This document shows, one piece after another, positions 3,277-35,892 of a stretch of DNA of 36,533 nt. Below the pieces are notes generated by a model. That model had not been told where the DNA came from, searched no databases, and saw only the letters and a list, made by a program, of their open reading frames with translations. Source of the DNA: Patescibacteria group bacterium (lineage in GTDB: Bacteria > Patescibacteriota > Gracilibacteria > UBA1369). The stretch is from the NCBI GenBank assembly GCA_018825335.1, contig JAHJEW010000098.1:1-36533 (forward strand). The letters are read 5' to 3'. Both the position numbers and the translations under genes were made by a program. Within the stretch, counting starts at the first letter, position 1; the number at the start of each line of letters is the position of its first letter.

Positions 3277-3288
3277 TCTTTTTTTGCG

Positions 3289-8852: not shown

Positions 8853-8856
8853 TGGT

Positions 8857-11526
8857 TTATGTTGTTGATTGCGGTTCTTCCGTAGTTTGCGGCTGGACTT
8901 TTGCAATTCCCTCTTTAAGGAGGTTGCCGAATTCCGCGTAGTTTGTAAGGTGGACGCCGTAGTCGGTTTTACTTGTGCCTACAAGATCGGGGCGGAGTTT
9001 GCCGGGAGTATTTTGGTCCTGGAAGACCTGATGGGTTTGAATTACTTCGTCCGGGCCTTCCGGTGTACCGGCCTGTTTTTTGATCCAGTCATTAAGTGCT
9101 GTCCATTTTTGGATGAGTTCATTTTCAAAATCTTCCGCGCTTTTGAGATTACTGTGCTTTTCGGCCCACGTTGCGCCCCATTTCTTTGAATATGATGAGT
9201 AAGCGAGCGGAGGAAGAGTTGAAGCAATGACTTTCATGCCTGCGGCTTTTGCCATTTTGTAGATTTTGGTCAGGTTTTCCTGTGTTTTTTCAATGGATAA
9301 GGGGTTCTGAGGGTCGCGACCAAACAGGTCGTTGCTGCCGCCGATAATAACCAGTGTGGCGCCGCGACAATCGTGAGATTTGGTCATTTTTTCAAAGGTA
9401 TGAACCATGGTGGAGGTAAGCTGACCGACAGATGGCTCTTTTTTTTGCGCTTCGGTTGCGTTTGGTCCAAGTTCAGGGTGAACGTGGGTAACGTCCATTC
9501 CTTTAAGCTGCGGGACGAAACCGTGGGAAAGCGAGTCCCCTATTACGAAAACTTTGCCGGTAGGTTTGATTTCTATTTGCTCCTGCGGGGTTTCGGATGC
9601 GGGGGCGGGTTCCGGCGGTTGTGGCTGTGATTCGGATTGGTATGATGGTGCGTAGGAAGGCGCCGGGGCGTAGGAGGTTTGTTGAGCTGGCGCGGCGGAG
9701 GGGCCGTAGCTACCGGATGGAGCTTGTGGCGCAGCTTCTTCCGTTGGGGCAGCGGAGGGTCTGCCGGCTGCCGCTATTTCGGTAGGGGCGATGTATGGCC
9801 GCGGGCCGCTTTGCGGGTGTTTTCTCTGGTATTCGCTGATTTCTTCCCTGGCCCAGTCGGGCACTTGGTACCTGCACTCCGGCCCGCGGGCTTGAGCGCT
9901 GAAAAGCGCTTTTCTAATATCTGCATAATCCGGGTTTGAAAGAACCTCGCTTAATTTGACGGGATTGCCGTCAATTATTGTGTCACCAATAAGGTCCGTT
10001 CCCTGCGCATAATCGTACCAACCGGGTTCGTGGGCGTGATCCCCAACTCCCTGAACAAAATCCCCAGACTGCGCCTTTCTATTTAATGATTCTTGTGAAT
10101 CCCGGCCTGGAGACGCGTGTATTCCTCCTCCAAAAATTATTTTTGTTGGATTGGGCGTATCCGGCATAAAGACGGTTTTGCGATGTCCAATTGTAAAATC
10201 GTCCGGCTTGATTCCGTTTTCCTGTAGCCAATTGAAGTACATTTCGCTTTCGGCGCGCGCGTAGGGCGCGGACTGCATTGCAGTTCCGTCTACGATGGTT
10301 TTGTCGCCTTGCTTTATTTCAAATGGTAATGCTCCTCCGGGATAATTTGCAGCTTTATCCTGTATTCGCGTGCCGTACCAGAACGGGGCTTTTTTGACGT
10401 TTGGATCGTTGTACAGGTGTCCGTAAAACTCGGAAGTTGGTAGATTGCCACCAAGGATATCGGCTATAGTCTGTGACATTTCGCCGTCCATTGATACGAT
10501 TGTTTCGTCGCCCGGAACCCCGAATCGGACCATGCCGTATAGCGGAATTTTGACCTCTTTGCCATTTACGGTGGTTGTATAGATTTTCGGCTTCATGCTG
10601 TCCGGAGAAAATGCTCCGGCAAGAGCCTGGCTTAGTATTAACCTCCTTTTTTCTTCGGGTGTTTGGCATTGTCTAAGAGCTTCATTGAACTGTGAACCGG
10701 TCATTGCCAGATCCGGATTTCTGCTTGGCCAATTGAGGCCGTAATCAGGAGTTTCTCCCGTCTTCTCCAGGTCACTGATTACTTCTTCGATCTTCTTTGG
10801 CCCTCCAATCGTGGAAAGCGCAACGTTTTTTGTCAGGCTTGCGCCGGTAAGTTTTTCCGCGTGCTCGATGATTTTTTTAACTGTTTCCGGGTCGTCCAAT
10901 TCTTTGGAATGATCCGCGCCCGGCGTTTCGTTTTGCATTATTAGTACAACCGGCTCGCCGTTTTTGCGCATCTGCTCAACGTATTCCAGCATTTTGGCGT
11001 TTTCGGGGTTGCTATCATCGGATGCGCTGCCGGGGGCGCGTTTCAGGACGATTACTTTTGGCTGTTTTTTTTGACCTTTTTCGTCCAGATATTTTTTATC
11101 GGCAAGGTCGGGCATGTTGATCTGGACTTCACTTTTTAGGCCTTTACCCTCAAGTCCCGGAACAGCGTCGAGTTTGTAGAACTGGCATTTTTCACCTTTC
11201 TTTTCGAATTGCTGTTCGATTTTCTGTTCGTATTTGCTTAACTCCTGTTCTTTTTTTCTTTTTTCTTCGGCTTTGCGCTTTTCTTCCTCGATTCTTTTTT
11301 GTTCTTCGGCACGGCGTTTGGCGGCCTGCGCCTGGCGTTGTTTTTCGGCGGCCAGGTTTTCCGCGTCAATCGGGACACCTGTCTGCCCCGGTTTTTCTTT
11401 GTCTTCAGGCTTTTCCTTTGTTTCCGGCTTCTCGGCACCACCGAAGTCCGGGATTTTGCCGTAGTGACAAAAGCTTCCAGACAGCAGGAAATTCTTTCGG
11501 CTGAGTTTTGGACAAGATAATTTCAT
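8857..11526 (-). CDS. large multidomain protein: charged coiled coil, uncharacterised central domain, Pro/Ala/Ser linker, C-terminal SGNH/GDSL hydrolase
   Basis: 889-aa ORF. VFVIGDSLS (block I), IIGGSNDL (block III) and DYGVHL (block V-like) define the SGNH domain. Confidence 0.75.
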   Translation of the reverse strand: MKLSCPKLSRKNFLLSGSFCHYGKIPDFGGAEKPETKEKPEDKEKPGQTGVPIDAENLAAEKQRQAQAAKRRAEEQKRIEEEKRKAEEKRKKEQELSKYEQKIEQQFEKKGEKCQFYKLDAVPGLEGKGLKSEVQINMPDLADKKYLDEKGQKKQPKVIVLKRAPGSASDDSNPENAKMLEYVEQMRKNGEPVVLIMQNETPGADHSKELDDPETVKKIIEHAEKLTGASLTKNVALSTIGGPKKIEEVISDLEKTGETPDYGLNWPSRNPDLAMTGSQFNEALRQCQTPEEKRRLILSQALAGAFSPDSMKPKIYTTTVNGKEVKIPLYGMVRFGVPGDETIVSMDGEMSQTIADILGGNLPTSEFYGHLYNDPNVKKAPFWYGTRIQDKAANYPGGALPFEIKQGDKTIVDGTAMQSAPYARAESEMYFNWLQENGIKPDDFTIGHRKTVFMPDTPNPTKIIFGGGIHASPGRDSQESLNRKAQSGDFVQGVGDHAHEPGWYDYAQGTDLIGDTIIDGNPVKLSEVLSNPDYADIRKALFSAQARGPECRYQVPDWAREEISEYQRKHPQSGPRPYIAPTEIAAAGRPSAAPTEEAAPQAPSGSYGPSAAPAQQTSYAPAPSYAPSYQSESQPQPPEPAPASETPQEQIEIKPTGKVFVIGDSLSHGFVPQLKGMDVTHVHPELGPNATEAQKKEPSVGQLTSTMVHTFEKMTKSHDCRGATLVIIGGSNDLFGRDPQNPLSIEKTQENLTKIYKMAKAAGMKVIASTLPPLAYSSYSKKWGATWAEKHSNLKSAEDFENELIQKWTALNDWIKKQAGTPEGPDEVIQTHQVFQDQNTPGKLRPDLVGTSKTDYGVHLTNYAEFGNLLKEGIAKVQPQTTEEPQSTT

Positions 11527-22804: not shown

Positions 22805-23805
22805 GTGAAGTTTATAACCCAGACGGCCGGATTCTTGTTGTGGGATCGCTCGCATACGACCATGTTATGCGGCACGCCGGCAGTTTTAAGGATGCGATTT
22901 TGCCGGGCAATTACAATGTTTCGCTGCCCGCCGCAGGTCGTCAGGTCTTTTTTGGCGGATGCGGCGGCAATATTGCTTATAGTTTGAGTCTGTTTGGCGA
23001 GCGGCCGGTTATTATTACGGCCGCCGGAAAGGATTTTGACGATTATGAAAAACGGCTTTCGTCGCTTGGCGTGGACATTTCTTTTGTGACGCGTTCGCGA
23101 CATCTGCCTACGGCCTCCGCCTTTATTGTGACCGACAAGAATGAAAATCAGGTTACGATTTTCGATCCGGGCGCCATGCACGGGGAGGATTGCGCGGTTT
23201 CAATCGGCGATGTTTTGTCGGCGAAACGCGACGCGTCGCAAGACGCGGAGCGCGGCGGGGTTTCCCGCGCTATTATTTCCCCCGACAAACCGTCGAACAT
23301 GCTTAAGTTCGCGCGGGAATGTCGCGAACACGGGATTCCGTATATTTTTGATCCCGCCCAGCAGATTGGCCTTTTTGAGGATGATGAGTTGCTTACCGCT
23401 ATTTCGGGTGCGGAAATTCTCATCGTTAACGAGTATGAAGCGGGGCTTCTGGAAAGTAAGCTGGGTCTTGTGCGCGCGAAGATTGCTACCATGGCGGGGA
23501 TTTATATAGAAACGCACGGGGCGCGCGGCGCGGCGGTGCAGGTTAATTTGGCTGGCAGGGCGTGCGAAATGCTTCACATTGCGGCCGTGGCGCCGACGCG
23601 GCTCATCGATCCGACCGGCTGCGGCGACGCTTTCCGCGCGGGTGTTCTTGTCGGCCTGCAAAGAGGCTTCGGCATTGAGAAAGCCTGCCGCGTCGGCGCG
23701 CTTTTGGCTACATATAGCCTTGAATGCGCAGGAACACAGTCCCACTCTTTTACATTGGCCCGATTCGCCGATCGCTTCAAAGAAAGTTTCGGAGAAAGTT
23801 TTTAG
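22801..23805 (+). CDS. PfkB-family carbohydrate kinase (adenosine kinase-like)
   Basis: GSLAYD, FGGCGGNIAY, FDPAQQ, VNEYE, DPTGCGDAFRAG. Confidence 0.88.
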   Translation: MSEVYNPDGRILVVGSLAYDHVMRHAGSFKDAILPGNYNVSLPAAGRQVFFGGCGGNIAYSLSLFGERPVIITAAGKDFDDYEKRLSSLGVDISFVTRSRHLPTASAFIVTDKNENQVTIFDPGAMHGEDCAVSIGDVLSAKRDASQDAERGGVSRAIISPDKPSNMLKFARECREHGIPYIFDPAQQIGLFEDDELLTAISGAEILIVNEYEAGLLESKLGLVRAKIATMAGIYIETHGARGAAVQVNLAGRACEMLHIAAVAPTRLIDPTGCGDAFRAGVLVGLQRGFGIEKACRVGALLATYSLECAGTQSHSFTLARFADRFKESFGESF

Positions 23806-23870
23806 GTTATAATTGTCCCACTTGCTATAATGCGTGGTGGATATTATCAAAAATTAACAAAAATATTTTT

Positions 23871-24386
23871 ATGGTTCGACAAAAAGTAAATAAACTTCTC
23901 ACCGCAATCGCGGCGCTTTGCTTTGTTGCAATGGGCGTGACGATTTACCTTACCTACATGCATTTTAAGCCGGAAGCGGCCGAATTCTGTAATTTCAGCG
24001 AAGCGTGGAACTGCGATGTCGTCAACAAAAGCGCCTGGTCGGTTGTTGATCTCGGCTTCGTACAGATTCCGGTTGCGATCCTGGGTTTTCTTACGTATTT
24101 AACCTTTTTTGTTGTGTCGATTCTGATCGTAAAAAAAGTGAACTGGCGTAAGATTTGGGGTAGGCTGAACGAAAAGCTGATTTTGAATTTGATGAAGTAT
24201 CTGAGCATAATCGGGTTTGTTTTTAGTCTTTATCTAAGCTATATAGAAGCTTTTGTGCTGCAGACGTTCTGCCTTTTCTGCGTGATTCAGCAGGTGATTA
24301 TTCTTGCGATCATGATTTTGTTTTTTGTGATTCTGGCCGCGATCAAATCGGACATGAATAAGACCCGCGCGTGCGAGTTTTGTTGA
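23871..24386 (+). CDS. vitamin K epoxide reductase (VKOR) family disulfide-formation membrane protein
   Basis: Loop Cys pair C......NC..V..S.WS, four TM helices, FCLFC redox motif. Start at ATG 23871 after TGcTATAAT. Confidence 0.88.
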   Translation: MVRQKVNKLLTAIAALCFVAMGVTIYLTYMHFKPEAAEFCNFSEAWNCDVVNKSAWSVVDLGFVQIPVAILGFLTYLTFFVVSILIVKKVNWRKIWGRLNEKLILNLMKYLSIIGFVFSLYLSYIEAFVLQTFCLFCVIQQVIILAIMILFFVILAAIKSDMNKTRACEFC

Positions 24387-25673: not shown

Positions 25674-25699
25674 AGCGCACTTCGTTTTGCTGCGTGCGT
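25674..25699 (+). repeat. REP-like 26-bp hairpin repeat, copy 1
   Basis: AGCGCACTTCGTTTTGCTGCGTGCGT, 22/26 identical to the copy at 32221. Confidence 0.65.
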
Positions 25700-25739
25700 G
25701 GTTGAAAGAGGAAAAACTCACTTACGAATGGTGAGGGTG

Positions 25740-25772
25740 GCGGACCTGGTTCTTTGTGGGAACCAGGTCCGC
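25740..25772 (-). terminator. 13-bp GC hairpin downstream of the cassette 1 gene (no U-tract)
   Basis: GCGGACCTGGTTC-N7-GAACCAGGTCCGC. A second CCCCGG/CCGGGG hairpin lies near 25793-25814. Confidence 0.55.
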
Positions 25773-25828
25773 TCCTCGGTTGTGGCGCTCGACCCCCGGT
25801 TTTTAGGCCGGGGGGAGCGCAGGGGGGG

Positions 25829-26659
25829 TCAGTTGGTCCCGAGGGGGATCACGCTGACCGTTGCTGCGCCGCCGCCGAAGGCGACGGCGCAGCCCGACGC
25901 CGACCCGAAGTCGGCGTAGGTGGGGGCTCCGGCCGCCCCCGAGAAGGTGGCATGGCCGGTGTCCCAGGACACCGCGCCAACCACCGCACCGACGACCTTG
26001 ACGGTCTCGGCGCACTTTCCGGCGGCGAACACCACGGATGCGACCGTGGTGTTCGCCGTGGTGGACATCTTTAGGGTTTGGCACCCCCAAAGTCCACTGG
26101 TTGCCCCGTCGGCGTAGGCGTCGCTGACGGCGAGGTAGGCATTGGGATCGTTCGAGGCCGGGGGGCCGTTGAACGAGCACAGTTGGTAGTTGGTGACAGT
26201 GCCACCCGTGCTACCGCCGGTGCCGCCAGTGCCGGTGCTGCCCGTGTTGCAGGCGAACTGCGCCGTGGTGTGCTCGCACACCATCTCGCAGATGCCCGTC
26301 GAGGTCTCGAAGACCTCGCAACCGACGCCCGGGGCGCCCTGGGCGCCCGCGGCACCCGGCGGGAGCTTGATGCTCTCGCCGTTTTCGCATGCCACGACGA
26401 TGGTTCCATCGTCGAGCTGCGTTGCCGTGGACACCACACAGGTGCCCTTGGCGACGTCGGTGCTGGACAGGACGTCGCCGTCCTCGTCCCTGCACACGCG
26501 CATCGAATTGCCATTCTCGTCCTGCTCGTACGAGCAGGACGAGAAGTCGTCGCCGCAGCCCGCGAGGGCCGCAACGACGAGCAGGAGGGTGGTGATGAGG
26601 GCCGCCTTGGCGGCCCTCGCCTTTTTTGCCCCGCAGGGGGGGCGGGTGGCATTCGCCAT
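25829..26659 (-). CDS. GC-rich Cys-containing lipoprotein with short collagen-like and Gly/Thr-rich linkers
   Basis: AAGGAG-N9-ATG (MANATRPP), LAGC lipobox, PGAAGAQGAPG, GSTGTGGTGGSTGG. The first 99 codons of the listed ORF are probably leader. Confidence 0.78.
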   Translation of the reverse strand: MANATRPPCGAKKARAAKAALITTLLLVVAALAGCGDDFSSCSYEQDENGNSMRVCRDEDGDVLSSTDVAKGTCVVSTATQLDDGTIVVACENGESIKLPPGAAGAQGAPGVGCEVFETSTGICEMVCEHTTAQFACNTGSTGTGGTGGSTGGTVTNYQLCSFNGPPASNDPNAYLAVSDAYADGATSGLWGCQTLKMSTTANTTVASVVFAAGKCAETVKVVGAVVGAVSWDTGHATFSGAAGAPTYADFGSASGCAVAFGGGAATVSVIPLGTN

Positions 26660-26949
26660 TGTCTCAATCTCCTTCCCCTGGGAGGGGGAACACCGCGCAC
26701 TATGCGCAGTGGCGCCCCTCCGTTCGGGGCACGCAGCTACCAGGGATGATCGGGTCGGACGGCTGCTAGAGCGCGTCGGGTCCGGATCCGTGGCAGGTGT
26801 GTGCCCCGAGGAGGGAAAGGGTTTGGGAGTGTGGCTTATCGCCACAAAAAAGGGAAATTGTGTTTGCTTTCGCAAACTTCGCTGCCAGTTTTTATTAGCG
26901 TGCTGGCGCACGCGGGATCTCGCTTGCGCAAAATCTGTTCGTAAGTGAG

Positions 26950-26961
26950 TTTTCAAAGGTC
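26950..26961 (-). promoter_or_regulatory. boxA-like motif, cassette 1 leader
   Basis: GACCTTTGAAAA on the minus strand, directly after a CGCCC/GGGCG hairpin and overlapping the inverted-repeat arm. Confidence 0.55.
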
Positions 26962-27123
26962 AATGCGCCCGAAGGATTTGACTCCGAAAGGGCGACTTTT
27001 CTTATTTATCCACGTTTTGCTGCTCATAAAAAATGGTAAAGCTTTATGGGACGCGGCATAGGCCGTGGCCCGATAAAACCTTATTGATCCGTTTTTTTGA
27101 GCATGTGAGTAAACAAGGAGAGG

Positions 27124-27152
27124 AATGTATCATATTCCCCTATTTCTGTCAA
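27124..27152 (-). promoter_or_regulatory. sigma70 promoter driving cassette 1
   Basis: TTGACA-N17-TACATT with extended -10 TG. Confidence 0.72.
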
Positions 27153-27531
27153 GCCACATCATTGTTGGATGATGAGCCGGGCAGCTGCCTGTTTAAATGC
27201 GAGGCAGGCGGGAATATTACAATGATTTTTGAGGATAAGTCAAAATATTGTTTTAGGTTTGTCAAAAGGTTTTTGCAGGTAGGGATCGTTTGCCAAAATT
27301 TTTTGCATGGGAAAGGGCCGCTTCATGTTATGAAGCGGCCCATCGGCGCACCTTGTTGTCCCGAATTAACGGGGCGTTAAGGGCGCCATTCCCGATCTTT
27401 TTTGCTTTGGCTTACCTCCTTTCCGGCGGGCGAGGGAGCTTTCACTCCCCCGCCCCATGCTCACGGTTGCCGTCCGCGTGGTCTTTTTTCTCACAGCTGG
27501 CTGGGCTGTAAGTCACCCGGTAGCGGTAGTG

Positions 27532-30500
27532 CTACCAGGTGATACGGATGGCGTAGTACGTGCATCCGTTCAGTGAGACGGTGTACGTGGTGTTGACCAC
27601 GTTTACCGTCGCGGGGGTGTACCCGCTCCCCTGCACCTCGAGGGTGCTGCCGCCCCAGGTGGGGGGCAGGGAGTAGGGCGAGCACCGCCGCTCCACGGAC
27701 ACCGGTGCCACCGACGAGGTGAACACCAAGAGTCCGTTGTTCTCCCAGGCCATTGCCCGGTCGCCGGCGGCGTAGGTGCCGCTGACGTTTCCGGACGAGC
27801 AGTTCCAGTCATCGGAAGTGCTCGCCGCGGGGTCGATCGTCGTTCCTCCGGAGAAGAACTTGACCGACTTGTAGCAAGAGTCACCGATAATGGTGACGCC
27901 CGCCGGGCCCTGCGGCTGCTGTTGCAGCGCGCAGATGCCCCCGACGCAGGTCTCACCTACGAGGCATGCGTTGCCGCACGCTCCGCAGTTGGCCTCGTCG
28001 CTCGCGAGGTCGGCGCAGGCGCCCCCGCAATTGGTGTACCCTTGCGAGCACGCCGTTTTGCAGGCGCCCTGGTCGCAGACCAGGCCTTGCCCACAGACCG
28101 CGCAGGCGGGTCCGCAGGCCAATGGATCTTGCATGATGCTTTCGCACCATAGATCCAGGTCGCAGTCCAGCGTGCCTTGGGAGCACGACAGGACACACGA
28201 CCCGCCCGAGCAGACTTGGTCGTTGACGCATGCGTTGCCGCACGCGCCGCAGTTCTGCTCGTCGCTCGACAGGTAGACGCAACTGCCGGAGCAGTTGGTC
28301 TGGTTTAGACCGCACGTGCTCTTGCACGCGCCGTCCGTGCACACCTGCCCTTGCGGACAGATGGCGCAACCCGGACCGCAGGCGGTCGGGTCACTCAGGA
28401 TATGCTCGCAGACGAAGTCTGCATCGCAGTCCTGTTCGCCTTGCTTGCACGACACCACGCAGGTGCCGCCCGAGCAAAGCTGGTCTCCGATGCATGCGTT
28501 TCCGCATGCACCACAGTTGTCCTCGTCCGAGGACACGTAGACGCAACTGCCGGAGCAGTTGGTCTGGTTCGGACCGCACGTGCTCTTGCACGCGCCGTCC
28601 GTGCACACCTGCCCTTGCGGACAGATGGCGCAACCCGGACCGCAGGCGGTCGGGTCGCTTTGGATCTGCTCGCAGACATTGTCTGTGTCGCAGTCCATCA
28701 TCTGCTCCGGACACGAGAGCACGCAGCTCCCGCCGGAACAGATCTGGTCTCCGACGCATGCGTTGCCGCACGCGCCGCAGTTGTCCTCGTCGGAGGACAG
28801 GTAGACGCAACTGTTGGAACAGTTGGTCTGCCCTGTGGCGCACACTGACTTGCAGGCGCCACTCGAGCACACCTGCCCCTGCGGGCAGATGGCGCAACCC
28901 GGACCGCAGGCGGTCGGGTCGCTTTGGATCTGCTCGCAGACATTGTCTGTGTCGCAGTCCATCATCTGCTCCGGACACGAGAGCACGCAGCTCCCGCCGG
29001 AACAGACCTGATCTCCGACGCATACGTTGCCGCACGCGCCGCAGTTCAGGGGGTCGCTGCCCAAGTGTACGCATGCGAGTCCGCATACGCTTAGCCCTTG
29101 AGAGCAACCATAGGTGCAGGTGCCGTTGTCGCACACCTGCCCCGGTCCGCACACATTGCAGCCGAGGCCGCAATGTAGCGGATCCGACCAGATGTAGTCA
29201 CACACTTGGTCGTTGCCGCAGTCGAGCGTGCCGGTGCTGCAATGCAGCTGGCACGTCCCGCCGAGGCACTGCTGGTCGCCGACACATTGAGTGCCGCACG
29301 ACCCGCAATTGGCTTCGTCGGTCTTGAAGTCGACGCAGCCGCCATTGCACAGCGACATGCCTTGTGAGCAGTTCGCCACGCATTGGCTCTTCTGGCAGAC
29401 CTGTCCCTGCGCGCAAACGGCGCAGAGAGGTCCGCAGTGCGACGACGTCGAAGTGATGTCGTCGCACAGGTTGTCCGCGTCGCAATCGGCCTGCCCCGTG
29501 GGACAGGCGAGCGCGCAGACGCTGGCCAGACACTGCTGGTCGCCCGGGCATACCGTGCCGCAGGCTCCGCAGTTGGCCTCGTCGGAGATTGTGTTTACAC
29601 ACTGACCTCCGCACTCCGTCTGCCCTTGCGAACAGACGGTCTTGCAGGCACCGAGGTCGCAGACCTCATTGACTGCGCAGTCCGTACAGGACGGCCCGCA
29701 GAACGCTGGATCCTGCATGATGTCATCGCAGATCCAGTCGTTGTCGCAATCCTTGGTGCCTTGCGGGCAGAAGAGCCCGCAGATTCCAAGGCTGCACTCC
29801 TGCTGGCCCGTGCACGCGGTGGTGCAGGAGCCGCAGGCCACCTCGGACGACTGCGTGTTGACGCAGCCGTTGAGGTTGGCGCAGTACTGGAAACCGCTTA
29901 CGCAGTTATCCAGGCATGTGCCGTTTTGACACACCTGCGTGCCGGAGCATTGGGCGCACAGAGGCCCGCAATGCGACCCGGACGAGGTAGTGTCGATGCA
30001 CTGGCCGTTCTTGTTACAGTCGGCCGTGCCCTGCGCGCAGCTGACGGGCTCACAGAACCCGCCAACGCACGCCTCCGTGATAGCGCATTTGCTACCACAA
30101 CCTCCGCAGTTGAGCTTGTCGCTCATGACTGCGGCACAGAAGTCCTGGCCGCCGCTCTGGCAGACCATTTCTCCTTCTGCGCAGTCCAGCACGCAGGCGC
30201 TGAACGCGCACGTCTCCCCTCCGGCGCAGGCGTTTCCGCATGCGCCGCAGTGGAGGGGGTCAGTGGCGAGATCCGCGCATGCGTTGCCGCACGCCGTCTC
30301 GCCCGACTTACAGTTCGAGTAGCAGGTGCCTCCCGAGCAAAACTCATTGAGGCCGCATGCGTTTCCGCACTGGCCGCAATGAGCGGGACTGCTAAGGAGG
30401 TTTGCGCAACCTCCATTACAGTCCACTGTCCCCGAGGGACAGTTGTCCGCGCACTCGCCCGAGGCGCAGACCTGCCCATCCGCGCACGGATCACAGTCCG

Positions 30501-30807
30501 TGCCGCAGTGGGCGACATTGGACCAGATGTCTACGCAGGACTCTGATCCGTCGCACACGGCGGTGCCGAGGGCGCAGTTCGCGCCGCCCGATCCGCCGGT
30601 GCCGCCGGCAGCGTTTCCGCCACCGCCGGTCTGGGACCCGCCGTTTCCGGTGGAGCCCCCGGTGGCCGTTGAGCCACCACCACATGGGGGGCGACTGCCA
30701 TCGAGGCATGCAACCTCCCCGGGAGCGACCTCCGCCTGGGGGTCGCTCCAACATCCCGCCGTCAGCGCGAAAATCGCGCAGGCGGCGGCCACTTTTTGCC
30801 ATTTCAT
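27532..30807 (-). CDS. giant Cys-rich repeat lipoprotein (MXAN_6577-like/Stig1-like modules)
   Basis: AAAGGAG SD before MKWQK, TAGC lipobox, Gly-rich linker, 20 tandem 8-Cys modules (D..NCGACGNAC...C..G.C) and a unique C-terminal domain. Confidence 0.85.
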   Translation of the reverse strand: MKWQKVAAACAIFALTAGCWSDPQAEVAPGEVACLDGSRPPCGGGSTATGGSTGNGGSQTGGGGNAAGGTGGSGGANCALGTAVCDGSESCVDIWSNVAHCGTDCDPCADGQVCASGECADNCPSGTVDCNGGCANLLSSPAHCGQCGNACGLNEFCSGGTCYSNCKSGETACGNACADLATDPLHCGACGNACAGGETCAFSACVLDCAEGEMVCQSGGQDFCAAVMSDKLNCGGCGSKCAITEACVGGFCEPVSCAQGTADCNKNGQCIDTTSSGSHCGPLCAQCSGTQVCQNGTCLDNCVSGFQYCANLNGCVNTQSSEVACGSCTTACTGQQECSLGICGLFCPQGTKDCDNDWICDDIMQDPAFCGPSCTDCAVNEVCDLGACKTVCSQGQTECGGQCVNTISDEANCGACGTVCPGDQQCLASVCALACPTGQADCDADNLCDDITSTSSHCGPLCAVCAQGQVCQKSQCVANCSQGMSLCNGGCVDFKTDEANCGSCGTQCVGDQQCLGGTCQLHCSTGTLDCGNDQVCDYIWSDPLHCGLGCNVCGPGQVCDNGTCTYGCSQGLSVCGLACVHLGSDPLNCGACGNVCVGDQVCSGGSCVLSCPEQMMDCDTDNVCEQIQSDPTACGPGCAICPQGQVCSSGACKSVCATGQTNCSNSCVYLSSDEDNCGACGNACVGDQICSGGSCVLSCPEQMMDCDTDNVCEQIQSDPTACGPGCAICPQGQVCTDGACKSTCGPNQTNCSGSCVYVSSDEDNCGACGNACIGDQLCSGGTCVVSCKQGEQDCDADFVCEHILSDPTACGPGCAICPQGQVCTDGACKSTCGLNQTNCSGSCVYLSSDEQNCGACGNACVNDQVCSGGSCVLSCSQGTLDCDLDLWCESIMQDPLACGPACAVCGQGLVCDQGACKTACSQGYTNCGGACADLASDEANCGACGNACLVGETCVGGICALQQQPQGPAGVTIIGDSCYKSVKFFSGGTTIDPAASTSDDWNCSSGNVSGTYAAGDRAMAWENNGLLVFTSSVAPVSVERRCSPYSLPPTWGGSTLEVQGSGYTPATVNVVNTTYTVSLNGCTYYAIRITW
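27922..30576 (-). repeat. intragenic tandem repeat: 20 modules, mostly alternating 45+43 aa (264-bp period)
   Basis: Near-identical DNA blocks 264 bp apart, e.g. 28295 vs 28559 and 28680 vs 28944. Confidence 0.9.
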
Positions 30808-30881
30808 GGCATTCTCCTTTCGTTGTGGCACAGGGGGCGGCCCGGCGAAATCCGGATATCGCCCCCCTTAGCCGCCTGCAC

Positions 30882-31970
30882 TCAGATGCGCAAGCCCACC
30901 ATGATGGGCTTGAACTGGGGCTCGATGCCCCAACTCTTGTCCTGGCCGTCGTAGCCAGGCACCCTGTTATACGGCGTGGCGTTGACCACACCGCAAACCC
31001 CTCCCCCGATGGAGAGGTTCGGAGCCGGGTGGAACAGGACGTTCGCACACGGCTCGACCACGAACACGTAGTTCGTGGCCTGGTTCGCGAACTCGACCGT
31101 CTTGGTCGAGCTCTGAGAAAGGAACGTGTCCGGGTAGGACACGACCTCGAGACCGAGCTGGGCTCCGAGGTTTCCCTCGAGCCAGCTCAGGGGGGCCCAC
31201 GAAACGTAGGGTCCCGCGGTGAAGGAGAACTTCTCCTCCACCGAGTCTGCGTTTACTGGCTGGTTTCCGTCGAACGTCCACACGTTGGTGTGGACGTAGT
31301 TCATCGTCGCGCCCAGCTGGGCGAAGCGGTGAAGGCGGACGAGGATGTCCGCCCCGACTCCGACCGGCACGTTGGTCGCGTGCTGGTCGTTGAGCCCCAG
31401 AAGGGGGCTCATGAGGAACTGCGCCCGCTGCGACAGCGGGCTCCAGCCCTTGAGCTGGCGACCGTAGTCGTCCAGCTTCTTGTCGACGTCCTTGAGGACG
31501 TCGACCTTGGCTTCCGCGACCTCCTCGTGGGTCGCGATCTCCGCCGGAGGCGGAGGAGCCGGCAGGACCGTGAGGTCCCACGCGGCCACCAGCTCGTTCC
31601 CGTACCTGACAGTCAGGTTCGGAAACGTTCCGGCCTGCGCCGTCCAGGCGATGCCGAACTGGGCCACACCATGGAGGTGTGGCTCGTCGGTGTAGGACTT
31701 GCAGCCCAACACCTCCTCGCCCAGGCCCTGCGGCCTGATGAGGTTCTCCTCCGTCCAGGTGGAGCACTCCAACTGGGCGATGAAGAGCACGGAGAGGCGC
31801 TTCCCCTCCGTGGCCACGGCCTTGCGGCCGCTCCTAGAGTCAATCCCCTCCAAGGAGGGGACAAAGAAGGGCACGTCGGCCTTTGCCGACGCCGCAGGTT
31901 GACCTTTTGCCCATCCCGCGACCATCAAGGTCGCGGCGACGAGCGCCCAACTCGTGAAGCGTCGCATCAT
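30882..31970 (-). CDS. GC-rich secreted protein with a probable C-terminal outer-membrane beta-barrel
   Basis: Signal peptide (MMRRFTSWALVAATLMVAGWAKG), PAPPPPA linker, short helix, then alternating strands (VGVGADIL, AQLGATMNY, FSFTAGPYVSW, LSIGGGV) ending IMVGLRI. Purine-rich SD GAGGAAAGGA. Confidence 0.62.
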   Translation of the reverse strand: MMRRFTSWALVAATLMVAGWAKGQPAASAKADVPFFVPSLEGIDSRSGRKAVATEGKRLSVLFIAQLECSTWTEENLIRPQGLGEEVLGCKSYTDEPHLHGVAQFGIAWTAQAGTFPNLTVRYGNELVAAWDLTVLPAPPPPAEIATHEEVAEAKVDVLKDVDKKLDDYGRQLKGWSPLSQRAQFLMSPLLGLNDQHATNVPVGVGADILVRLHRFAQLGATMNYVHTNVWTFDGNQPVNADSVEEKFSFTAGPYVSWAPLSWLEGNLGAQLGLEVVSYPDTFLSQSSTKTVEFANQATNYVFVVEPCANVLFHPAPNLSIGGGVCGVVNATPYNRVPGYDGQDKSWGIEPQFKPIMVGLRI

Positions 31971-32157
31971 TGCTTAGCTTCCTTTCCTCTTGCTGGTCGC
32001 GGTTTCGGGCCCGGAGGGGCCATAACGCACCATGCGTTATAGTCCCCACCGCGCCGCGGGACTCACTCCATCTTTTTGTATCGGCCAATAAAAAAAATCG
32101 GCATACTCAAAAAAACGGGGCGAGTCCCACGGCAAAAAAAATATGATTCTAAAATAT

Positions 32158-32246
32158 AGCGCACTTTGCTCCGCTTCGTGCGTGGGGCGTTTTTCGCTTC
32201 TCTCACTTCGTTCGCTCCACAGCGCACTTCGCTCCGCTTCGTGCGT
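32158..32246 (+). repeat. two direct copies of the REP-like 26-bp hairpin repeat
   Basis: AGCGCACTTYGCTCCGCTTCGTGCGT at 32158-32183 and 32221-32246 (25/26 identical); stem GCAC/GTGC. Confidence 0.8.
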
Positions 32247-32257
32247 AGTAAGCCAAA

Positions 32258-32269
32258 TTGTTAAAGATC
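32258..32269 (-). promoter_or_regulatory. boxA-like motif, cassette 2 leader
   Basis: GATCTTTAACAA(TTT) on the minus strand, close to rrn boxA GCTCTTTAACAA. It lies within the inverted-repeat arm. Confidence 0.6.
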
Positions 32270-32403
32270 GCCAACTCCACCTTCTATCGCAGTGGCCGGT
32301 CGTCAAAGCATGCCTTTCCGCCCTCCGCTGGTGCGGATGGCTCCAAGTGCACTGATTTTGGCCCAATTTCCACTAGACAGGCAGGATTAAAGAATTGGAT
32401 GAG

Positions 32404-32432
32404 AGTTTAACTATATTGCGGACTTTTGTCAA
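32404..32432 (-). promoter_or_regulatory. sigma70 promoter driving cassette 2
   Basis: TTGACA-N17-TAAACT. Confidence 0.75.
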
Positions 32433-32575
32433 CCTTTTTACCGCTTTGCAGCGGTTTTGGAAAGATCGGCAAAAGCCGCAATCAGTAAACGTTAAATTTA
32501 ATGCTTCTTTTGGGCTTCCATTACAGGGCCGGCGGCGTAATAATGGCATCGGACATTATCACTAACAGCAAAGAA

Positions 32576-33706
32576 ATGAAAAAACGGCCGCGGATTGTTA
32601 TTTGCGGGAACTACGGAGCCACGAATCTTGGCGACGAAGCGATTCTGGACGGGATTCTTTCGCTGGTCAGAAGATCCATCCCAAACGCGGACATTACGGT
32701 TTTAGGCGCCAATCCGGCCGAGACGGCGGATCTTCACGGAGTAAAGAGCCTTTTTTTGCTTCCGGCGGGGGCGCGTTCGCTTTGGCGCGGGGTTTCGGGC
32801 GGCACTATTTGGCGCACTCTGGACGCAATTCGCAAGGCTGATTTGTTTATTCTTGGCGGCGGAGGGCTTTTTACGGATGAGAAGTTTATGGCTGTTTTGA
32901 TCTGGTCACTGCAGGCGCGGATCGCGCGGCTTTTTAAAGTGCCGATTTTCTGCCTGGGGCAGAGCGTAGGGCCTCTTCGGACTTTTTTCGGGCGGATGAT
33001 GACGGCGGGGGTTTTTAAACATTCTGCGGAAATTACCGTGCGCGATGAAGCTTCCCGGGATTTGCTTGTTCGTCTTGGGATCGATGACGCGCTTGTGCTG
33101 GCCGATCCGGCGTTTGTCCTTGCCGCGCCCGAGCCGCTGCCCGAGCGCACAGAGCCTTACGTGGTTTTGTCGGTGCGTCCGTGGAAAATTATGGGCGGCG
33201 AGAGCTTTCGGGATAAGCTTTTGTGTCAGGTTTTAGCGAAATTCGTTGATCGTCTCTGGATGGAGAATGGCCTAAAGACCATTATGGTGCCTTTTCAGGT
33301 CATGGTCGATAACGACGCGAACGAGCTGGAGCGCATTTATGATCTTCTGGAAGACAAAAAGGCCGCGGAGATTTTCTCCTACAGCAGCGATTACAAGAAG
33401 GTTATGGAGCTTATAGCGCGTTCAACGGCCGTGGTTGGGATGAGGCTTCACTCTCTCATTTTCGCGTCGATTTGCCACACGCCGTTTCTGGCGCTATCGT
33501 ACAGCGAAAAAGTGCGAAGTTTTTGCGCGCAGGTCGGCATGGAGGACTTTATTCTTGGTCTTGATGAAGTGGACCTTGCTGCGCTTATGGTCAGGTTTGA
33601 ACGAATTTTGTCTGAACGGGATGCGCTGGTTTTGCGGCTGGACAACAGGGTTTTGCATTTGCGGGCAATGGCGCTTGAGCATGAGGGGATTTTAGAGAAG
33701 TTTTAA
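32576..33706 (+). CDS. csaB: polysaccharide pyruvyl transferase (CsaB-like)
   Basis: GNYGATNLGDEAIL, GGGGLFTD, GQSVGP, VRDEAS, ADPAF, GMRLHSLI, LSYSEKV. Start uncertain (32501, 32543 or 32576). Confidence 0.8.
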   Translation: MKKRPRIVICGNYGATNLGDEAILDGILSLVRRSIPNADITVLGANPAETADLHGVKSLFLLPAGARSLWRGVSGGTIWRTLDAIRKADLFILGGGGLFTDEKFMAVLIWSLQARIARLFKVPIFCLGQSVGPLRTFFGRMMTAGVFKHSAEITVRDEASRDLLVRLGIDDALVLADPAFVLAAPEPLPERTEPYVVLSVRPWKIMGGESFRDKLLCQVLAKFVDRLWMENGLKTIMVPFQVMVDNDANELERIYDLLEDKKAAEIFSYSSDYKKVMELIARSTAVVGMRLHSLIFASICHTPFLALSYSEKVRSFCAQVGMEDFILGLDEVDLAALMVRFERILSERDALVLRLDNRVLHLRAMALEHEGILEKF

Positions 33707-33760
33707 TAGGTTTTTATTTTTTGATAATAATGTTCCGTTACAATGTCGGTACATTTTTGG

Positions 33761-33789
33761 TTGATTAATTTATTATATAAGTTTACTAT
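33761..33789 (+). promoter_or_regulatory. promoter of the TA operon
   Basis: TTGATT-N17-TACTAT. An imperfect palindrome AATGTtCCG..CGGtACATT at 33729-33755 may be an operator. Confidence 0.5.
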
Positions 33790-33794
33790 ACTAT

Positions 33795-34082
33795 ATGAAA
33801 GTATTACTAAGTAAACCTTCAATGGCTACAATTTCTTTTAAGGCCGACGATAGTTTTAAGAAAAAACTTGATGCTCTTGCGGAGAAAAAGGGCATTAATA
33901 CTTCCGCTTTTATCAAGCTGATTCTTACTAAAGAGGTCGGCTGTGAGCTTGCAGAGATGACTGAAAACGGGTTAACGGTTGCGGAGGAGCTGGAAATTTT
34001 GGACTCTGTGAAAAACGACAAGGTTCTTGGACCTTTCTCAAATACCAATGATCTATTGAATGCTTTGAAAGATTCAAAATGA
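33795..34082 (+). CDS. RHH-type antitoxin (RelB/DinJ-like)
   Basis: ATISFKAD..FKKKL..LA...GIN.S.FI ribbon-helix-helix pattern, GPFSNT.DL C-terminus, ATGA overlap with the toxin. Alternative start at 33822. Confidence 0.75.
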   Translation: MKVLLSKPSMATISFKADDSFKKKLDALAEKKGINTSAFIKLILTKEVGCELAEMTENGLTVAEELEILDSVKNDKVLGPFSNTNDLLNALKDSK

Positions 34083-34336
34083 GGATTTTTTTCACGTCGG
34101 GCTTTCAGAAAAAATTTATTAAGCTGCCACTGAATATTCAGGAGCAATTTGGCGTCAGAATTGATCTTTTTATAGAGGACTCATCGCATCCATCCCTAAA
34201 GGTTCATCCACTGAAGGGAAATCTGGCGGGACTAAGGGCTTTTTCGGTTAGCGGTGATTGTCGTGTAATTTATCGTTTATTGGATCGCGATAGTATTGAG
34301 CTAATAAGCATTGGCACACATAGTCAGATTTATTGA
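34079..34336 (+). CDS. RelE/YafQ-family mRNA interferase toxin
   Basis: F.K...KL, HPSLKVHPLKG, FSV.GD.RVIY, IGTHSQIY. Confidence 0.85.
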   Translation: MRIFFTSGFQKKFIKLPLNIQEQFGVRIDLFIEDSSHPSLKVHPLKGNLAGLRAFSVSGDCRVIYRLLDRDSIELISIGTHSQIY

Positions 34337-34570
34337 TAGGTTTTAATGGCCCGGGCCAAGTACACCAATGGTGGCAAGCCATAAAACGGTTGTCGTTCGG
34401 CGAATTTTCAGTTTTGATTTCGTTTGACTTTTGCGCCCTATTCTTGTAATGCTATCTATCCGTCACTATTGTGGCGACGATTTTTCGCGGGTCGAAGGGT
34501 CGTTGCCCGGTGGCAGCGATCTTTGATAGCCCGCATTTTGGGGCCGCCAAGGCGGCCCATTGGAGGTAGT

Positions 34571-35131
34571 ATGTTTCGTTTTTCCCATTTGTTTCGGGTC
34601 GCGTTGGCGACCCTTGCCCTGTGCCTTCTGGGCACAGGGTGCGCGGACGCCACGCCGGTCGCGAAGGCGCCGGCGGTCGCGCCGCCGACGCCCCCCGTGA
34701 AGACGGAGGGCAGGCCTGCATTACCACCCGCCCCCGCGGTCGTGCTGGCGCAGGTCAAGTCATCACCGGGCAACATGCCCGATGACATATACTCGGACAC
34801 GCTGATCCGGGTGGTGGCGTGGGCAGCTGTCGGCCCGCAGAACCTGCAGGTCGATGCGGTCACCGACCTGCCGTTGGGCGGCACAATCGTGCTGCTCAGC
34901 GAGGATCCGAACGTCGTCCTCACAACGGACGACGTCAAGCTGGCGGAGGGGCCGATGCGCCTCCGCCAGACCCAGAGCGGGGTTCAGGCGATCCTGAACC
35001 CCACCGAGGCGGAGCTGAAGAAGCTCCGCGGTGGCGAGCGGTTGCCGCTCGTCTTCCTTTTGGGAGACACCCTCTCCCCCATGGGGGAGAAGAAGTTCCC
35101 CCTCCACGTGGGGCTTGCGCGGCTGGACTGA
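34571..35131 (+). CDS. GC-rich lipoprotein with Pro/Ala-rich linker
   Basis: GGAGGT SD before ATG 34571, LLGTGC lipobox, APAVAPPTPP linker, third codon positions strongly G/C. Confidence 0.78.
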   Translation: MFRFSHLFRVALATLALCLLGTGCADATPVAKAPAVAPPTPPVKTEGRPALPPAPAVVLAQVKSSPGNMPDDIYSDTLIRVVAWAAVGPQNLQVDAVTDLPLGGTIVLLSEDPNVVLTTDDVKLAEGPMRLRQTQSGVQAILNPTEAELKKLRGGERLPLVFLLGDTLSPMGEKKFPLHVGLARLD

Positions 35132-35161
35132 GAAGTCCGGCCGCCGCCCCGCGACTGGAAA

Positions 35162-35189
35162 GGGGCGGCGTGCTTACGCACGCCGCCCC
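35162..35189 (+). terminator. 12-bp GC hairpin downstream of the cassette 3 gene (no U-tract)
   Basis: GGGGCGGCGTGC-ttac-GCACGCCGCCCC. Confidence 0.55.
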
Positions 35190-35229
35190 CATGATTGCGA
35201 TTCATCACACAAAAAAAATGCGGGCTATC

Positions 35230-35892
35230 TTATCCAAACATTTCCGTTTGTCTGCTTAAGCGTGCAACCGGCTCGTACGTCCTGCGGTGAATTTCGCATA
35301 TCCCGTGCTCTTTTATGCCTTTCTGGTGCCTTTTTGTGCCGTACCCCATATTTTCATCGAAACCATAAAGTGGGAATTTTTTTGCGTATTTTTTCATTAT
35401 TTTGTCTCTTTCTACTTTTGCAATTATTGACGCGCAGGCTACTATTTTTACTTTTTCATCGCCCTTAATTACGCTCACATACGGGATTGGCATGTTGAAT
35501 TTGTCGCGACCGTCAATTATGAGCAGGTCGGGGGGCCGACGGGATTTGTCTTTTTTCAATGCTTCAAGCGCACGGGTGAATGCGCGGTTTGTGGCTTTTA
35601 TCAGCCCCAATTCATCAATCTCTTCGTGCGTGGCCGATCCAACACCAAAAAATACCTTTGTTTTTAATTTTCTGTAAATTTCCTCGCGTTTTTCCGCCGT
35701 CAGAGCTTTCGAATTTTTCAGTCCTTTAATGCGCAGATCTTTTCCCCTGAAAACGACCACCGCGGCCACTACCGGCCCCGCCCAAGGACCGCGGCCAGCC
35801 TCGTCCATCCCGCAAAAGACACGGCTCCCACCGATGTCCGGCCGCTTTACAATCGCTTCCTCCAGCACCTTTTTTATCGACAAAAAAGCCAT
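35230..35892 (-). CDS. rnhB: ribonuclease HII
   Basis: GMDEAGRGPWAGPVVAA, IIDG, IKGD, ASIIAKVERD, GYGT..H, HRRTY. Confidence 0.96.
   Translation of the reverse strand: MAFLSIKKVLEEAIVKRPDIGGSRVFCGMDEAGRGPWAGPVVAAVVVFRGKDLRIKGLKNSKALTAEKREEIYRKLKTKVFFGVGSATHEEIDELGLIKATNRAFTRALEALKKDKSRRPPDLLIIDGRDKFNMPIPYVSVIKGDEKVKIVACASIIAKVERDKIMKKYAKKFPLYGFDENMGYGTKRHQKGIKEHGICEIHRRTYEPVARLSRQTEMFG

Follow-up and report, generated by a model that had tools for sequence, protein, structure and literature searches.

Textbook accounts of ribosomal RNA (rRNA) synthesis feature boxA/Nus complexes and leader-trailer helices, and processive antitermination of long or foreign operons is known from lambda N/nut, RfaH/ops and LoaP. 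Here we focus on protein-coding genes that appear to share the first of these arrangements. They lie in three GC-rich units, referred to as units 1-3, on a contig of a groundwater bacterium of the Patescibacteria (contig C107 of the host genome); the window is the whole stretch of DNA analysed, 36,533 nucleotides (nt) in length. Each unit carries a boxA-like motif beside one arm of an inverted repeat whose other arm closes the unit, and the order of putative promoter, hairpin, boxA and 5' arm at one end and 3' arm at the other is that of the rRNA leader with its boxB-boxA-boxC array and Nus complex. As in an rRNA operon, boxA and 5' arm overlap in the manner of the 16S leader of the same genome, the enclosed RNA is highly structured, and genes for NusB, a SuhB-like protein and RNase III are present. 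In contrast to an rRNA operon, the units enclose open reading frames (ORFs) with Shine-Dalgarno (SD) sequences, their helices measure 13-23 bp against at least 27 bp for 16S, and several of their boxA variants are loose. With lambda N/nut, RfaH/ops and LoaP they would share a leader signal that drives terminator read-through across a defined unit; they differ in having a signal similar to rRNA boxA and ends that pair to close the unit.

Leader-trailer helices have been described for rRNA in all phyla, and in a term search of that survey the words 'protein-coding' and 'boxA' are absent and 'mRNA' occurs in the reference list only (PMC11404451). BoxA itself is documented in the mRNA leaders of suhB, rpsJ and ParE-like toxin genes (Baniulyte et al., 2017; PMC5725501), which likewise place a boxA-like element in a protein-coding 5' untranslated region (UTR), outside rRNA. 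There, as far as the consulted sections go, boxA and start codon are no more than ~50 nt apart, the element represses translation or influences termination by Rho, and no trailer complement is described. In the present units, by contrast, it lies 45-290 nt upstream of the start and pairs with the 3' end, and searches of the 96%-complete genome with Rho_RNA_bind (PF07497) and TIGR00767 did not detect Rho. With regard to composition, the lgr genes of Protochlamydia amoebophila also have a GC content far above that of their genome and encode repeat proteins, although the opening of the abstract holds nothing on boxA, end pairing or hyper-structured coding RNA (PMC2216083). The Peribacteria of the candidate phyla radiation, small-genome groundwater bacteria, carry large signal-peptide-bearing Cys-rich proteins with strain variation and one disulfide-bond enzyme, and the proteins are weakly similar to Myxococcus Cys-rich repeats (PMC4736985). 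The present locus resembles this case in its Stig1-type repeats and a nearby VKOR gene; Peribacteria genomes, however, have 58.5% GC overall, and the consulted part of that report makes no mention of GC-rich islands, boxA or flanking repeats. Our literature searches, which were incomplete and did not extend to supplementary gene lists, returned no description of protein-coding units framed by boxA and a leader-trailer helix, nor of coding regions that fold beyond composition at z-scores of -8 to -23 and whose stems are conserved at synonymous sites. What appears to be new is the combination of boxA, end pairing and conserved hyper-structure around protein-coding units, which may be regarded as a variant of boxA-type processive transcription.

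The host genome (G000; related genomes are labelled G0xx, loci in relatives L0xx, and L140 is a metagenome contig) measures 1.15 Mb in 134 contigs with 45.5% GC and an estimated completeness of 96%, and all 60 of the closest kin sampled have genomes of 0.8-1.9 Mb, sizes that would suit a candidate-phyla-radiation-like bacterium. GC inside the units is 0.60-0.67 compared with 0.455 for the genome. The third codon positions of their ORFs reach a GC content (GC3) of 0.80-0.87, with lower values at second positions as in real genes, and GC3 is 0.43-0.60 in the neighbouring native genes. Because an independent metagenome (run X3) has contigs (records 10, 13 and 14) that bridge the junctions between GC-rich and ordinary DNA, the units are not assembly chimeras. 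Their sequence suggests that they encode secreted Cys-rich proteins and lipoproteins and follow the plan of an rRNA operon. The reading that we favour, with a probability of roughly 0.55, is that boxA and Nus factors would help to transcribe mRNAs that are saturated with hairpins and clamped at their ends by a leader-trailer helix.

An initial annotation of this DNA had described three inverted-repeat pairs, a layout shared by the units and a boxA-like motif that always overlaps the arms, and a fresh reading of the sequence bears it out on all three counts (Table 1). The arms of unit 1 are exact reverse complements over 16 bp, those of unit 2 pair over 8 and 10 bp flanking a 5x5 mismatch loop, and those of unit 3 form 15 perfect pairs. 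In transcript orientation, each unit runs from a sigma-70-type promoter-like site, a weak one in unit 3, through a leader hairpin, the boxA-like motif and the 5' arm to one or two SD-led secreted-protein genes, a GC hairpin and the 3' arm, with GAYCTTTRA overlapping or abutting the 5' arm in all three. Signal peptides and lipoboxes were called by eye from the translations.

To judge how readily such arms arise by chance, leader windows of 46 nt were searched against the 250 nt past the stop codon for their longest Watson-Crick run, and the result was set beside that of 4000 random genomic pairs. The run is 16 for unit 1, 10 for unit 2 (its second 8-bp half uncounted) and 15 for unit 3; it is 16 and 13 for two further islands, on contigs C42 and C118, and 27 for 16S rRNA. 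Among the random pairs the maximum was 12 (2/4000), with 59/4000 reaching at least 10 and none reaching 13; by this control the leader-trailer complementarity is beyond chance. Genome-wide there are 578 pairs of inverted repeats of at least 12 bp, and those of at least 10 bp next to a boxA-like regular expression number 95 against 91 in the reversed control; short inverted repeats are common by chance and the long ones alone stand out. Leader-trailer energies from RNAduplex do not discriminate, since 0-12 of 300 controls are equally good and large interior loops give random segments similar energies. A 16-bp inverted repeat on contig C7 was dismissed as lying inside an ordinary coding region.

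The same layout is found elsewhere in the genome. A scan for GC islands returned seven strong ones (GC at least 0.62), namely units 1-3, C42, C118, and C79 and C125, which are cut by contig ends; arms flank all five of the complete islands. A search of other GC islands had been suggested with the first description of the layout, and both C42 and C118 match it. C42 has 16-bp arms (AAAACTTGCATTGCCT) downstream of GCTAATTTGAAAAC, and C118 pairs over 13 bp plus 3 bp across a G-U and contains GCTCTTTTGG. In C79, at a contig edge and the sixth 5' region that can be assessed, the leader has a boxA-like GCTCTTTTACAAC. The parallel with rRNA precursors drawn in the initial annotation holds within this very genome, whose single rRNA operon has boxA as GTTCTTTAACATC in the 16S leader and as GCTCATTGAAAAC in the spacer ahead of 23S. 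In the 16S leader, GTTCTTTAAC overlaps the 5' strand of the leader-trailer helix, which has 27 bp there, just as the motif overlaps the 5' arm in the units. The unit motifs GACCTTTGAAAAC, GATCTTTAACAAT and GATCTTTGATAGC are close to the rRNA boxA, and the match includes a GAAAAC extension. The rRNA operon and several units also have a promoter form in common (TTGACT or TTGACA, 17 nt, TAnnnT). The NusB gene (C5:5017-5391) adjoins the RNase III gene (C5:5017-5882 together), and a SuhB-like gene lies on C101. What the unit helices enclose is not stable rRNA: they contain ORFs with SD sequences, signal peptides and a Pfam domain, and an Rfam search found no RNA family in them.

Beyond the host, Stig1-type genes are present in 10 of 35 further genomes of its family; among 65 genomes sampled across the remaining families of its order, one has them. 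Seven of the eight Stig1 loci fetched are in islands of 62-68% GC within DNA of 35-50% GC, and lower-GC islands are seen in G023 (~55%) and G075 (~53%). The pattern GAYCWTTGAAAAC has 42 matches in 36 family genomes, one of them a 23S leader, compared with 24 for its reversed control. Five units found in this way (in G009, twice in G030, in G034 and in G019) have an arm starting in GAAAAC that is matched 0.7-1.8 kb downstream by a perfectly complementary trailer of 12-17 bp; they enclose DNA of 51-66% GC and are followed by a T/C-rich run. Two further helices of 16 bp were found in G029 and G010. Across seven genomes, eight GAAAAC-anchored helices vary at positions 7, 8 and 10-16 and pair perfectly in every case. 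This covariation comes from a manual in-register comparison, as a MAFFT alignment of seven whole units opened a 21-column gap inside the 5' arm. In several units of relatives the 3' arm is followed after 15-40 nt by a canonical hairpin with a T run, and because such terminators are downstream of the arm, the arm would lie inside the transcript.

Orthologous units show how the arms change. In G029, the unit 2 orthologue has a near-identical leader (GGCGATCTTTAACAATTTGGCC...) with a changed arm for which the trailer compensates (TTGGCCTATCTTC / GAAGATAGGCCAA), and the unit in the slot of unit 3 has a wholly different arm (TGTCATCCCGG-T-GGATAA) that pairs over 11 + 6 bp with its own trailer beside the RNase HII stop. 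The unit 2-like helix of G010 has 13 bp with two mismatches, both of which are G-U in the sense RNA; together with one in C118, these are pairs valid only in sense RNA. In L140 the unit 1 helix reaches 17 bp with one A-U to G-C change relative to the host, and the unit 2 trailer keeps both halves of the helix despite a GC hairpin inserted between them (7836-7890). That arms differ between units and always pair, as first noted for the window, is borne out, and the compensatory changes then singled out as worth looking for were found in G029, G010 and L140, G-U changes included. These comparisons support the view that selection acts on the pairing and not on a fixed sequence.

Other features were seen in these loci. 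Three loci (L071, L072 and L075, from G027, G012 and G021) have GACCTTTGAAAAC after AT-rich promoter-like DNA, followed by moderately GC-richer sequence (43-48%); they contain no trailer complement of at least 11 bp and no Rfam family, and might represent boxA leaders belonging to units of another kind. L140 has two direct repeats of ~120 nt (3530-3780) in the leader region (5' UTR) of its unit 2 orthologue, and the host lacks them. In G029 (L036, 6100-6700), the pyruvyl transferase gene and the orthologue of unit 2 have between them a GC-rich ORF of many tandem 18-nt units (GAAGGCGGATA.GCGGGA...) followed by Stig1-like Cys repeats.

The RNA enclosed by the arms is itself unusual, a point that the initial annotation did not raise. 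Folding was scored as z against dinucleotide shuffles, and a perfect hairpin was defined by a stem of at least 7 and a loop of 3-8. Whole units from arm to arm score -11.1 (unit 3), -13.3 (C42) and -14.0 (C118), and three native genes +1.9, -0.7 and -1.3. In coding sequence (CDS) windows of 700 nt, z is -10.8 for unit 1 and -10.7 and -8.3 for the first and second ORF of unit 2 (2a and 2b); it is -0.8, -0.4 and +0.5 for CDS windows of GC-rich organisms (67-71% GC; Streptomyces, Polyangiaceae and a deltaproteobacterium). At minimum energy the RNA folds into a string of short GC hairpins, often perfect ones, which the leader-trailer helix closes; the median pair span is 19-24 nt and 69-76% of bases are paired. 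Units 1, 2a and 3 have 10.8-13.8 perfect hairpins per kb, compared with 0.53 for the genome on average and 0.6-1.2 for GC-rich organisms, and the six regions of the genome with at least 4 perfect hairpins in 600 nt are all GC islands. Against within-ORF synonymous-codon shuffles, z is -7.6, -9.1 and -8.3 (native genes +0.7 and -3.0); because such shuffling destroys it, the structure is written into codon choice. The sense fold is more stable than the antisense fold in six of seven units, by 8-85 kcal/mol and with more G-U pairs, an asymmetry to which base skew could contribute. Terminator-like hairpins stand on the sense strand at 31892->31873 and 31143->31125 of unit 2, in its 5' UTR (Table 1) and at 35033-35053 of unit 3; the scan for such hairpins as a whole is not above shuffles (17 vs 12.4 +/- 3.0).

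This structure is conserved between orthologues. Those in L140 have 14-16 hairpins per kb and z of -23.3 and -10.7, and hairpins stand at the same aligned place in host and L140 for 11 of 15 in 2a and 5 of 9 in unit 1. Third-position identity in 2a is 70/83 (0.84) in stem columns vs 176/278 (0.63) in other columns, and in unit 1 it is 34/55 (0.62) vs 111/204 (0.54). Among the 117 stem pairs of 2a, 97 are unchanged, 4 have changed on both sides and 2 on one side with pairing kept, and 14 are broken; the corresponding figures for the 83 pairs of unit 1 are 43, 4, 7 and 28, with one gap. Units of relatives score -3.6 (G029), -4.9 (G010) and -6.7 (the G011 Stig1 unit).

The initial annotation had taken these for foreign genes packaged as cassettes, and on this point the evidence contradicts it. 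The locus reads L19, RNase HII, unit 3, pyruvyl transferase, unit 2, unit 1, VKOR, PfkB, and a tblastn search with the window genes found the order common to the host, G029 and G010, which are three genera, and to L140. G029 has L19, RNase HII, a GC-rich lipoprotein unit, pyruvyl transferase, a two-gene Stig1 unit and a Cys-rich lipoprotein unit; G010 has pyruvyl transferase, a unit 2-like and a unit 1-like unit, VKOR and PfkB. L140 carries units 2 and 1 in the same order, with a 2a protein 68-72% identical. It lacks unit 3, the RNase HII stop being joined to the ParE stop within ~20 nt. The indel, window 34337-35235, spans the whole unit including the promoter and 188 bp upstream of the 5' arm, and because it begins that far outside, the arms are not the ends of a mobile or deleted segment. 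Homologues of the unit proteins are few: P0003 has none in 5.8 billion clusters and no match in 60 kin, P0001 has one (68%), and P0004 has four weak or partial ones in 1.84 billion representatives. No homologue is traceable to a GC-rich donor, and a viral contig search gave no hit. No transposase, integrase, invertase or recombinase domain was found with Pfam in the 29 window ORFs, the rest of the genome not having been searched for a recombinase. Judged by gene order and homology, the units are resident and vertically inherited, not imports. Two kinds of element were rejected by name. Integron cassettes do not fit repeats that flank a gene 0.7-4.9 kb apart, a promoter region for each unit and window ORFs without an integrase domain. 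Insertion sequences, miniature inverted-repeat transposable elements and transposons do not fit arms that differ between units, window ORFs without a transposase, an indel that does not end at the repeats and synteny across three genera.

Other explanations can be divided into those that place the function of the repeats in DNA and those that accept RNA structure in some form. The units could have been acquired horizontally as mobile cassettes, with the arms as terminal inverted repeats or as halves of a hairpin target hit by GC-rich foreign DNA. The sharp GC step (0.65 vs 0.455), the high GC3, inverted repeats at the unit edges and the presence of unit 3 in the host but not in the collinear L140 are what one would expect. 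Common gene order, an indel that takes the promoter along, the dearth of homologues in GC-rich taxa and of mobility genes in the window all speak against it, as do arms that have no terminal sequence in common except the boxA-like part; we regard such an origin as extremely improbable. Metagenome contigs showed no empty-site joints. The repeats might instead be sites of site-specific inversion, at which surface-protein genes flip relative to a fixed promoter and lipoproteins vary in phase. Perfect inverted repeats of 15-16 bp with the promoter outside, variable surface or secreted products of the usual phase-variation kind and a break of source-run contigs at the unit 1 5' arm (26933-26962) would all suit this idea. 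It is nevertheless very unlikely: besides the absence of a recombinase domain among the window ORFs, none of 18 armed units (from seven genomes and one metagenome contig) is inverted, the gene always being sense to promoter and boxA, and contigs of four metagenome runs have no strand-change joint, although contigs drop rare variants. Mismatches in the helices are G-U in the sense RNA in three cases and A/C in one, and inversion leaves unexplained why the 5' arm always overlaps a boxA-like motif.

If the pairing is real, it could still be independent of Nus factors, with helix and hairpins merely stabilising the mRNA or forming a long-range terminator and the TCTTTRA-like motif being the base of a stem or the site of another protein. 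Such a view would fit the failure to find Rho, the degenerate motifs of C42 and the G029 unit 3-like leader, the lack of genome-wide enrichment of the motif and the T/C-rich run directly after the 3' arm in unit 1, C42, C118 and seven units of relatives, which is reminiscent of a long-range-stem terminator. However, the motif is close to the rRNA boxA of the genome and the family down to the GAAAAC extension, it is placed as in the 16S leader with respect to promoter, hairpin and helix, and canonical terminator hairpins 15-60 nt past the 3' arm in several units mean that the helix need not terminate. We consider this alternative doubtful, if the most credible of the four. The hairpins, and perhaps the GC content too, might also be by-products of a local mutational process without RNA function, such as template switching that perfects quasi-palindromes. 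Many stems are perfect and not merely stable; hairpins turn over, with 4/15 and 4/9 not kept in place and 16 and 13 of its own in the L140 orthologue; and unit 1 folds slightly better in antisense. Against this, conservation is higher in stem columns than elsewhere, above all at third codon positions, which indicates purifying selection, the sense strand is favoured in most units with more G-U pairs, and arms 0.7-4.9 kb apart and their link to boxA would remain without explanation. A mutational origin is unlikely.

BoxA-assisted transcription of end-clamped mRNAs would work as follows. NusB/NusE-type factors would load at boxA and allow RNA polymerase to resist many pause-like and terminator-like hairpins. 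In models of rRNA synthesis, the leader bound via boxA remains close to the polymerase. Once the trailer arm emerges it would pair with the leader arm, and the clamped ends could offer protection from exonucleases or a processing site. Since every helix covers part or all of boxA, the pairing may also evict Nus factors, so that termination would occur at the next terminator; the trailer arm is followed by a U/C-rich tract and often by a terminator hairpin. The product would be a compact, long-lived mRNA. On this reading, high GC serves the design of the RNA and is not a sign of foreign origin, which would explain why the units persist across genera without an identifiable donor. A further-reaching version, which we put forward only tentatively and think improbable as a whole, would make them a distinct class of armoured mRNAs that combine rRNA-type machinery, GC hairpins at synonymous sites and a 3' arm that recaptures boxA in a self-limiting antitermination; being compact and nuclease-resistant, such mRNAs could persist through dormancy or even leave the cell. 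Nothing found here speaks for the circularisation, export or translation in a GC-rich host that the initial annotation had contemplated.

Several observations weigh against boxA-assisted transcription of clamped mRNAs. GAYCTTTRA by itself is not enriched in the host genome (53 matches vs 60 in the reversed control); the non-random part is the position of the motif beside the arms, that is, its combination with them. The reversed control of GAYCWTTGAAAAC implies that about half of its matches are chance, and among its instances with long flanks only 5/22 form a helix by the criterion used, 14/22 being without a repeat of at least 11 bp and 2/22 having repeats judged local or due to chance. Four large Stig1 units in relatives (L032, L033, L034 and L039, from G011, G026, G032 and G017) have no clear boxA and arm, with best runs of 7-11, and the layout is on that account common and not universal. 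Hyper-structure is not universal either, as GC-rich units of genus g20 have z of ~0. The better antisense fold of unit 1 fits poorly, and perfect stems could also arise by a process at the DNA level. With Rho undetected, the classic anti-Rho role of boxA may not apply. RNase III needs a helix of about two turns, and the unit helices have 13-17 perfect pairs, or 23 bp with an internal loop in unit 2; cleavage of helices as short as 13-17 bp is possible but doubtful. The boxA variants of C42 (GCTAATTTGA) and of the G029 unit 3-like leader (GATATTTGT) are loose, and they depart at C4 and T6, positions important in E. coli according to the consulted part of Baniulyte et al. (2017; PMC5725501). Finally, that both arms stand on one molecule, where the transcripts end and how they would be processed are all deduced from DNA.

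Table 1. Coordinates of the features of units 1-3 in the window
Feature	Position	Strand	Remarks
Unit 1 promoter-like site	27124..27152	-	TTGACA, 17 nt, TACATT, TG before -10; passes scan; same sequence upstream of L140 orthologue
Unit 1 boxA-like motif GACCTTTGAAAAC	26949..26961	-	GAYCTTTRA at 26953-26961; resembles GCTCATTGAAAAC (own 23S spacer) and GATCATTGAAAAC (23S leader, relative G024)
Unit 1 5' arm of leader-trailer helix, 16 nt	26938..26953	-	
Unit 1 long GC-rich 5' UTR	26660..26937	-	
Unit 1 ORF, 276 aa	25829..26659	-	lipoprotein-like N-terminus (LAGC), Cys-rich, GC3 0.87, 9 perfect CDS hairpins
Unit 1 GC hairpin between stop codon and 3' arm	25740..25772	-	by eye
Unit 1 3' arm	25713..25728	-	followed by TCCTCTTTC and a short-repeat hairpin with T run on the transcript
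Unit 2 promoter-like site	32404..32432	-	TTGACA, 17 nt, TAAACT; passes scan; promoter and leader conserved in L140
Unit 2 5' arm	32248..32270	-	8 + 10 nt, 5-nt loop; boxA-like GATCTTTAA (GAYCTTTRA) inside at 32261-32269
Unit 2 5' UTR	31971..32247	-	2 copies of short interspersed repeat; sense-strand terminator-like hairpin with T run (32130->32115)
Unit 2 first ORF (2a), 362 aa	30882..31970	-	signal-peptide-like N-terminus; 15 perfect hairpins in 1089 nt
Unit 2 second ORF (2b), ~1091-1099 aa	27532..30831	-	lipoprotein-like N-terminus; 8 Stig1-type Cys-rich repeats (E 5e-53)
Unit 2 3' arm	27393..27415	-	10 + 8 nt, the 8-nt half being complementary to the boxA core
GC hairpin then TTTCCC, candidate terminator	27306..27332	-	~60 nt past unit 2 3' arm; by eye, fails T-run rule of scan
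Unit 3 entire block, promoter region to 3' arm	34337..35235	+	missing from otherwise collinear L140
Unit 3 weak promoter-like site	34424..34452	+	TTGACT, 17 nt, TAATGC; by eye; fails promoter scan
Unit 3 leader hairpin, boxB-like position	34461..34476	+	
Unit 3 boxA-like motif GATCTTTGA	34518..34526	+	GAYCTTTRA
Unit 3 5' arm, 15 nt	34525..34539	+	
Unit 3 ORF, 186 aa	34571..35131	+	lipoprotein-like (LGTGC); no homologue found
Unit 3 GC hairpin past stop codon	35162..35189	+	
Unit 3 3' arm	35215..35229	+	abuts stop codon of convergent RNase HII gene

Two short repeated sequences touch the units. One is an interspersed repeat of ~25 nt (...ACGCACG.AGCG.AGCGAAGTGCGC) with ~8 copies in the genome, in the window at 25675-25700 and 32160-32245 and also on contigs C6, C105, C114, C118 and C131; two copies fall in the 5' UTR of unit 2 and one just past the 3' arm of unit 1, and in L140 the orthologue of unit 1 is followed by two copies in tandem. 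The other is an 18-nt self-complementary hairpin, GGGCCGCCAAGGCGGCCC in transcript sense, of which the genome has only two copies, one in the part of unit 1 that codes for the signal peptide (26599-26616) and one just before the SD sequence of unit 3 (34541-34558). Among the neighbours, a VKOR-family gene for disulfide-bond formation (23724-24386) lies near the units for Cys-rich secreted proteins, a neighbourhood also found in G010. Between the pyruvyl transferase gene and unit 3 there is a pair of an RHH antitoxin and a ParE/YafQ-like toxin (33795-34336), which is kept in L140, where the toxin stop abuts the RNase HII stop. The rest of the window holds ordinary chromosomal genes, among them those for RuvB, a ClpB-like protein, S1, an AddA-like helicase-nuclease, RmuC, IF-2, ProRS, rhamnose-pathway enzymes, VKOR, RNase HII and L19. 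An ORF of 889 aa on the minus strand (8857-11526) has no Pfam match, a strongly negative AT skew (-0.2 to -0.5) and GC of up to 0.58. On contig C6 of the host, a series of inverted matches of 13-27 bp between ~2400-3360 and 8190-9040 indicates a diverged inverted duplication of ~1 kb around ~5 kb of ordinary GC.

Should boxA-assisted transcription of end-clamped mRNAs prove true, an ultra-small uncultured lineage would route one class of mRNAs for surface proteins via the pathway of stable RNA. Compositional islands could then reflect RNA design and not necessarily horizontal gene transfer, which would matter for island-based calls of such transfer in metagenome-assembled genomes. The units would also offer a natural system in which to study Nus-aided passage of the polymerase through structured RNA and the translation of hairpin-saturated messages by the ribosome.

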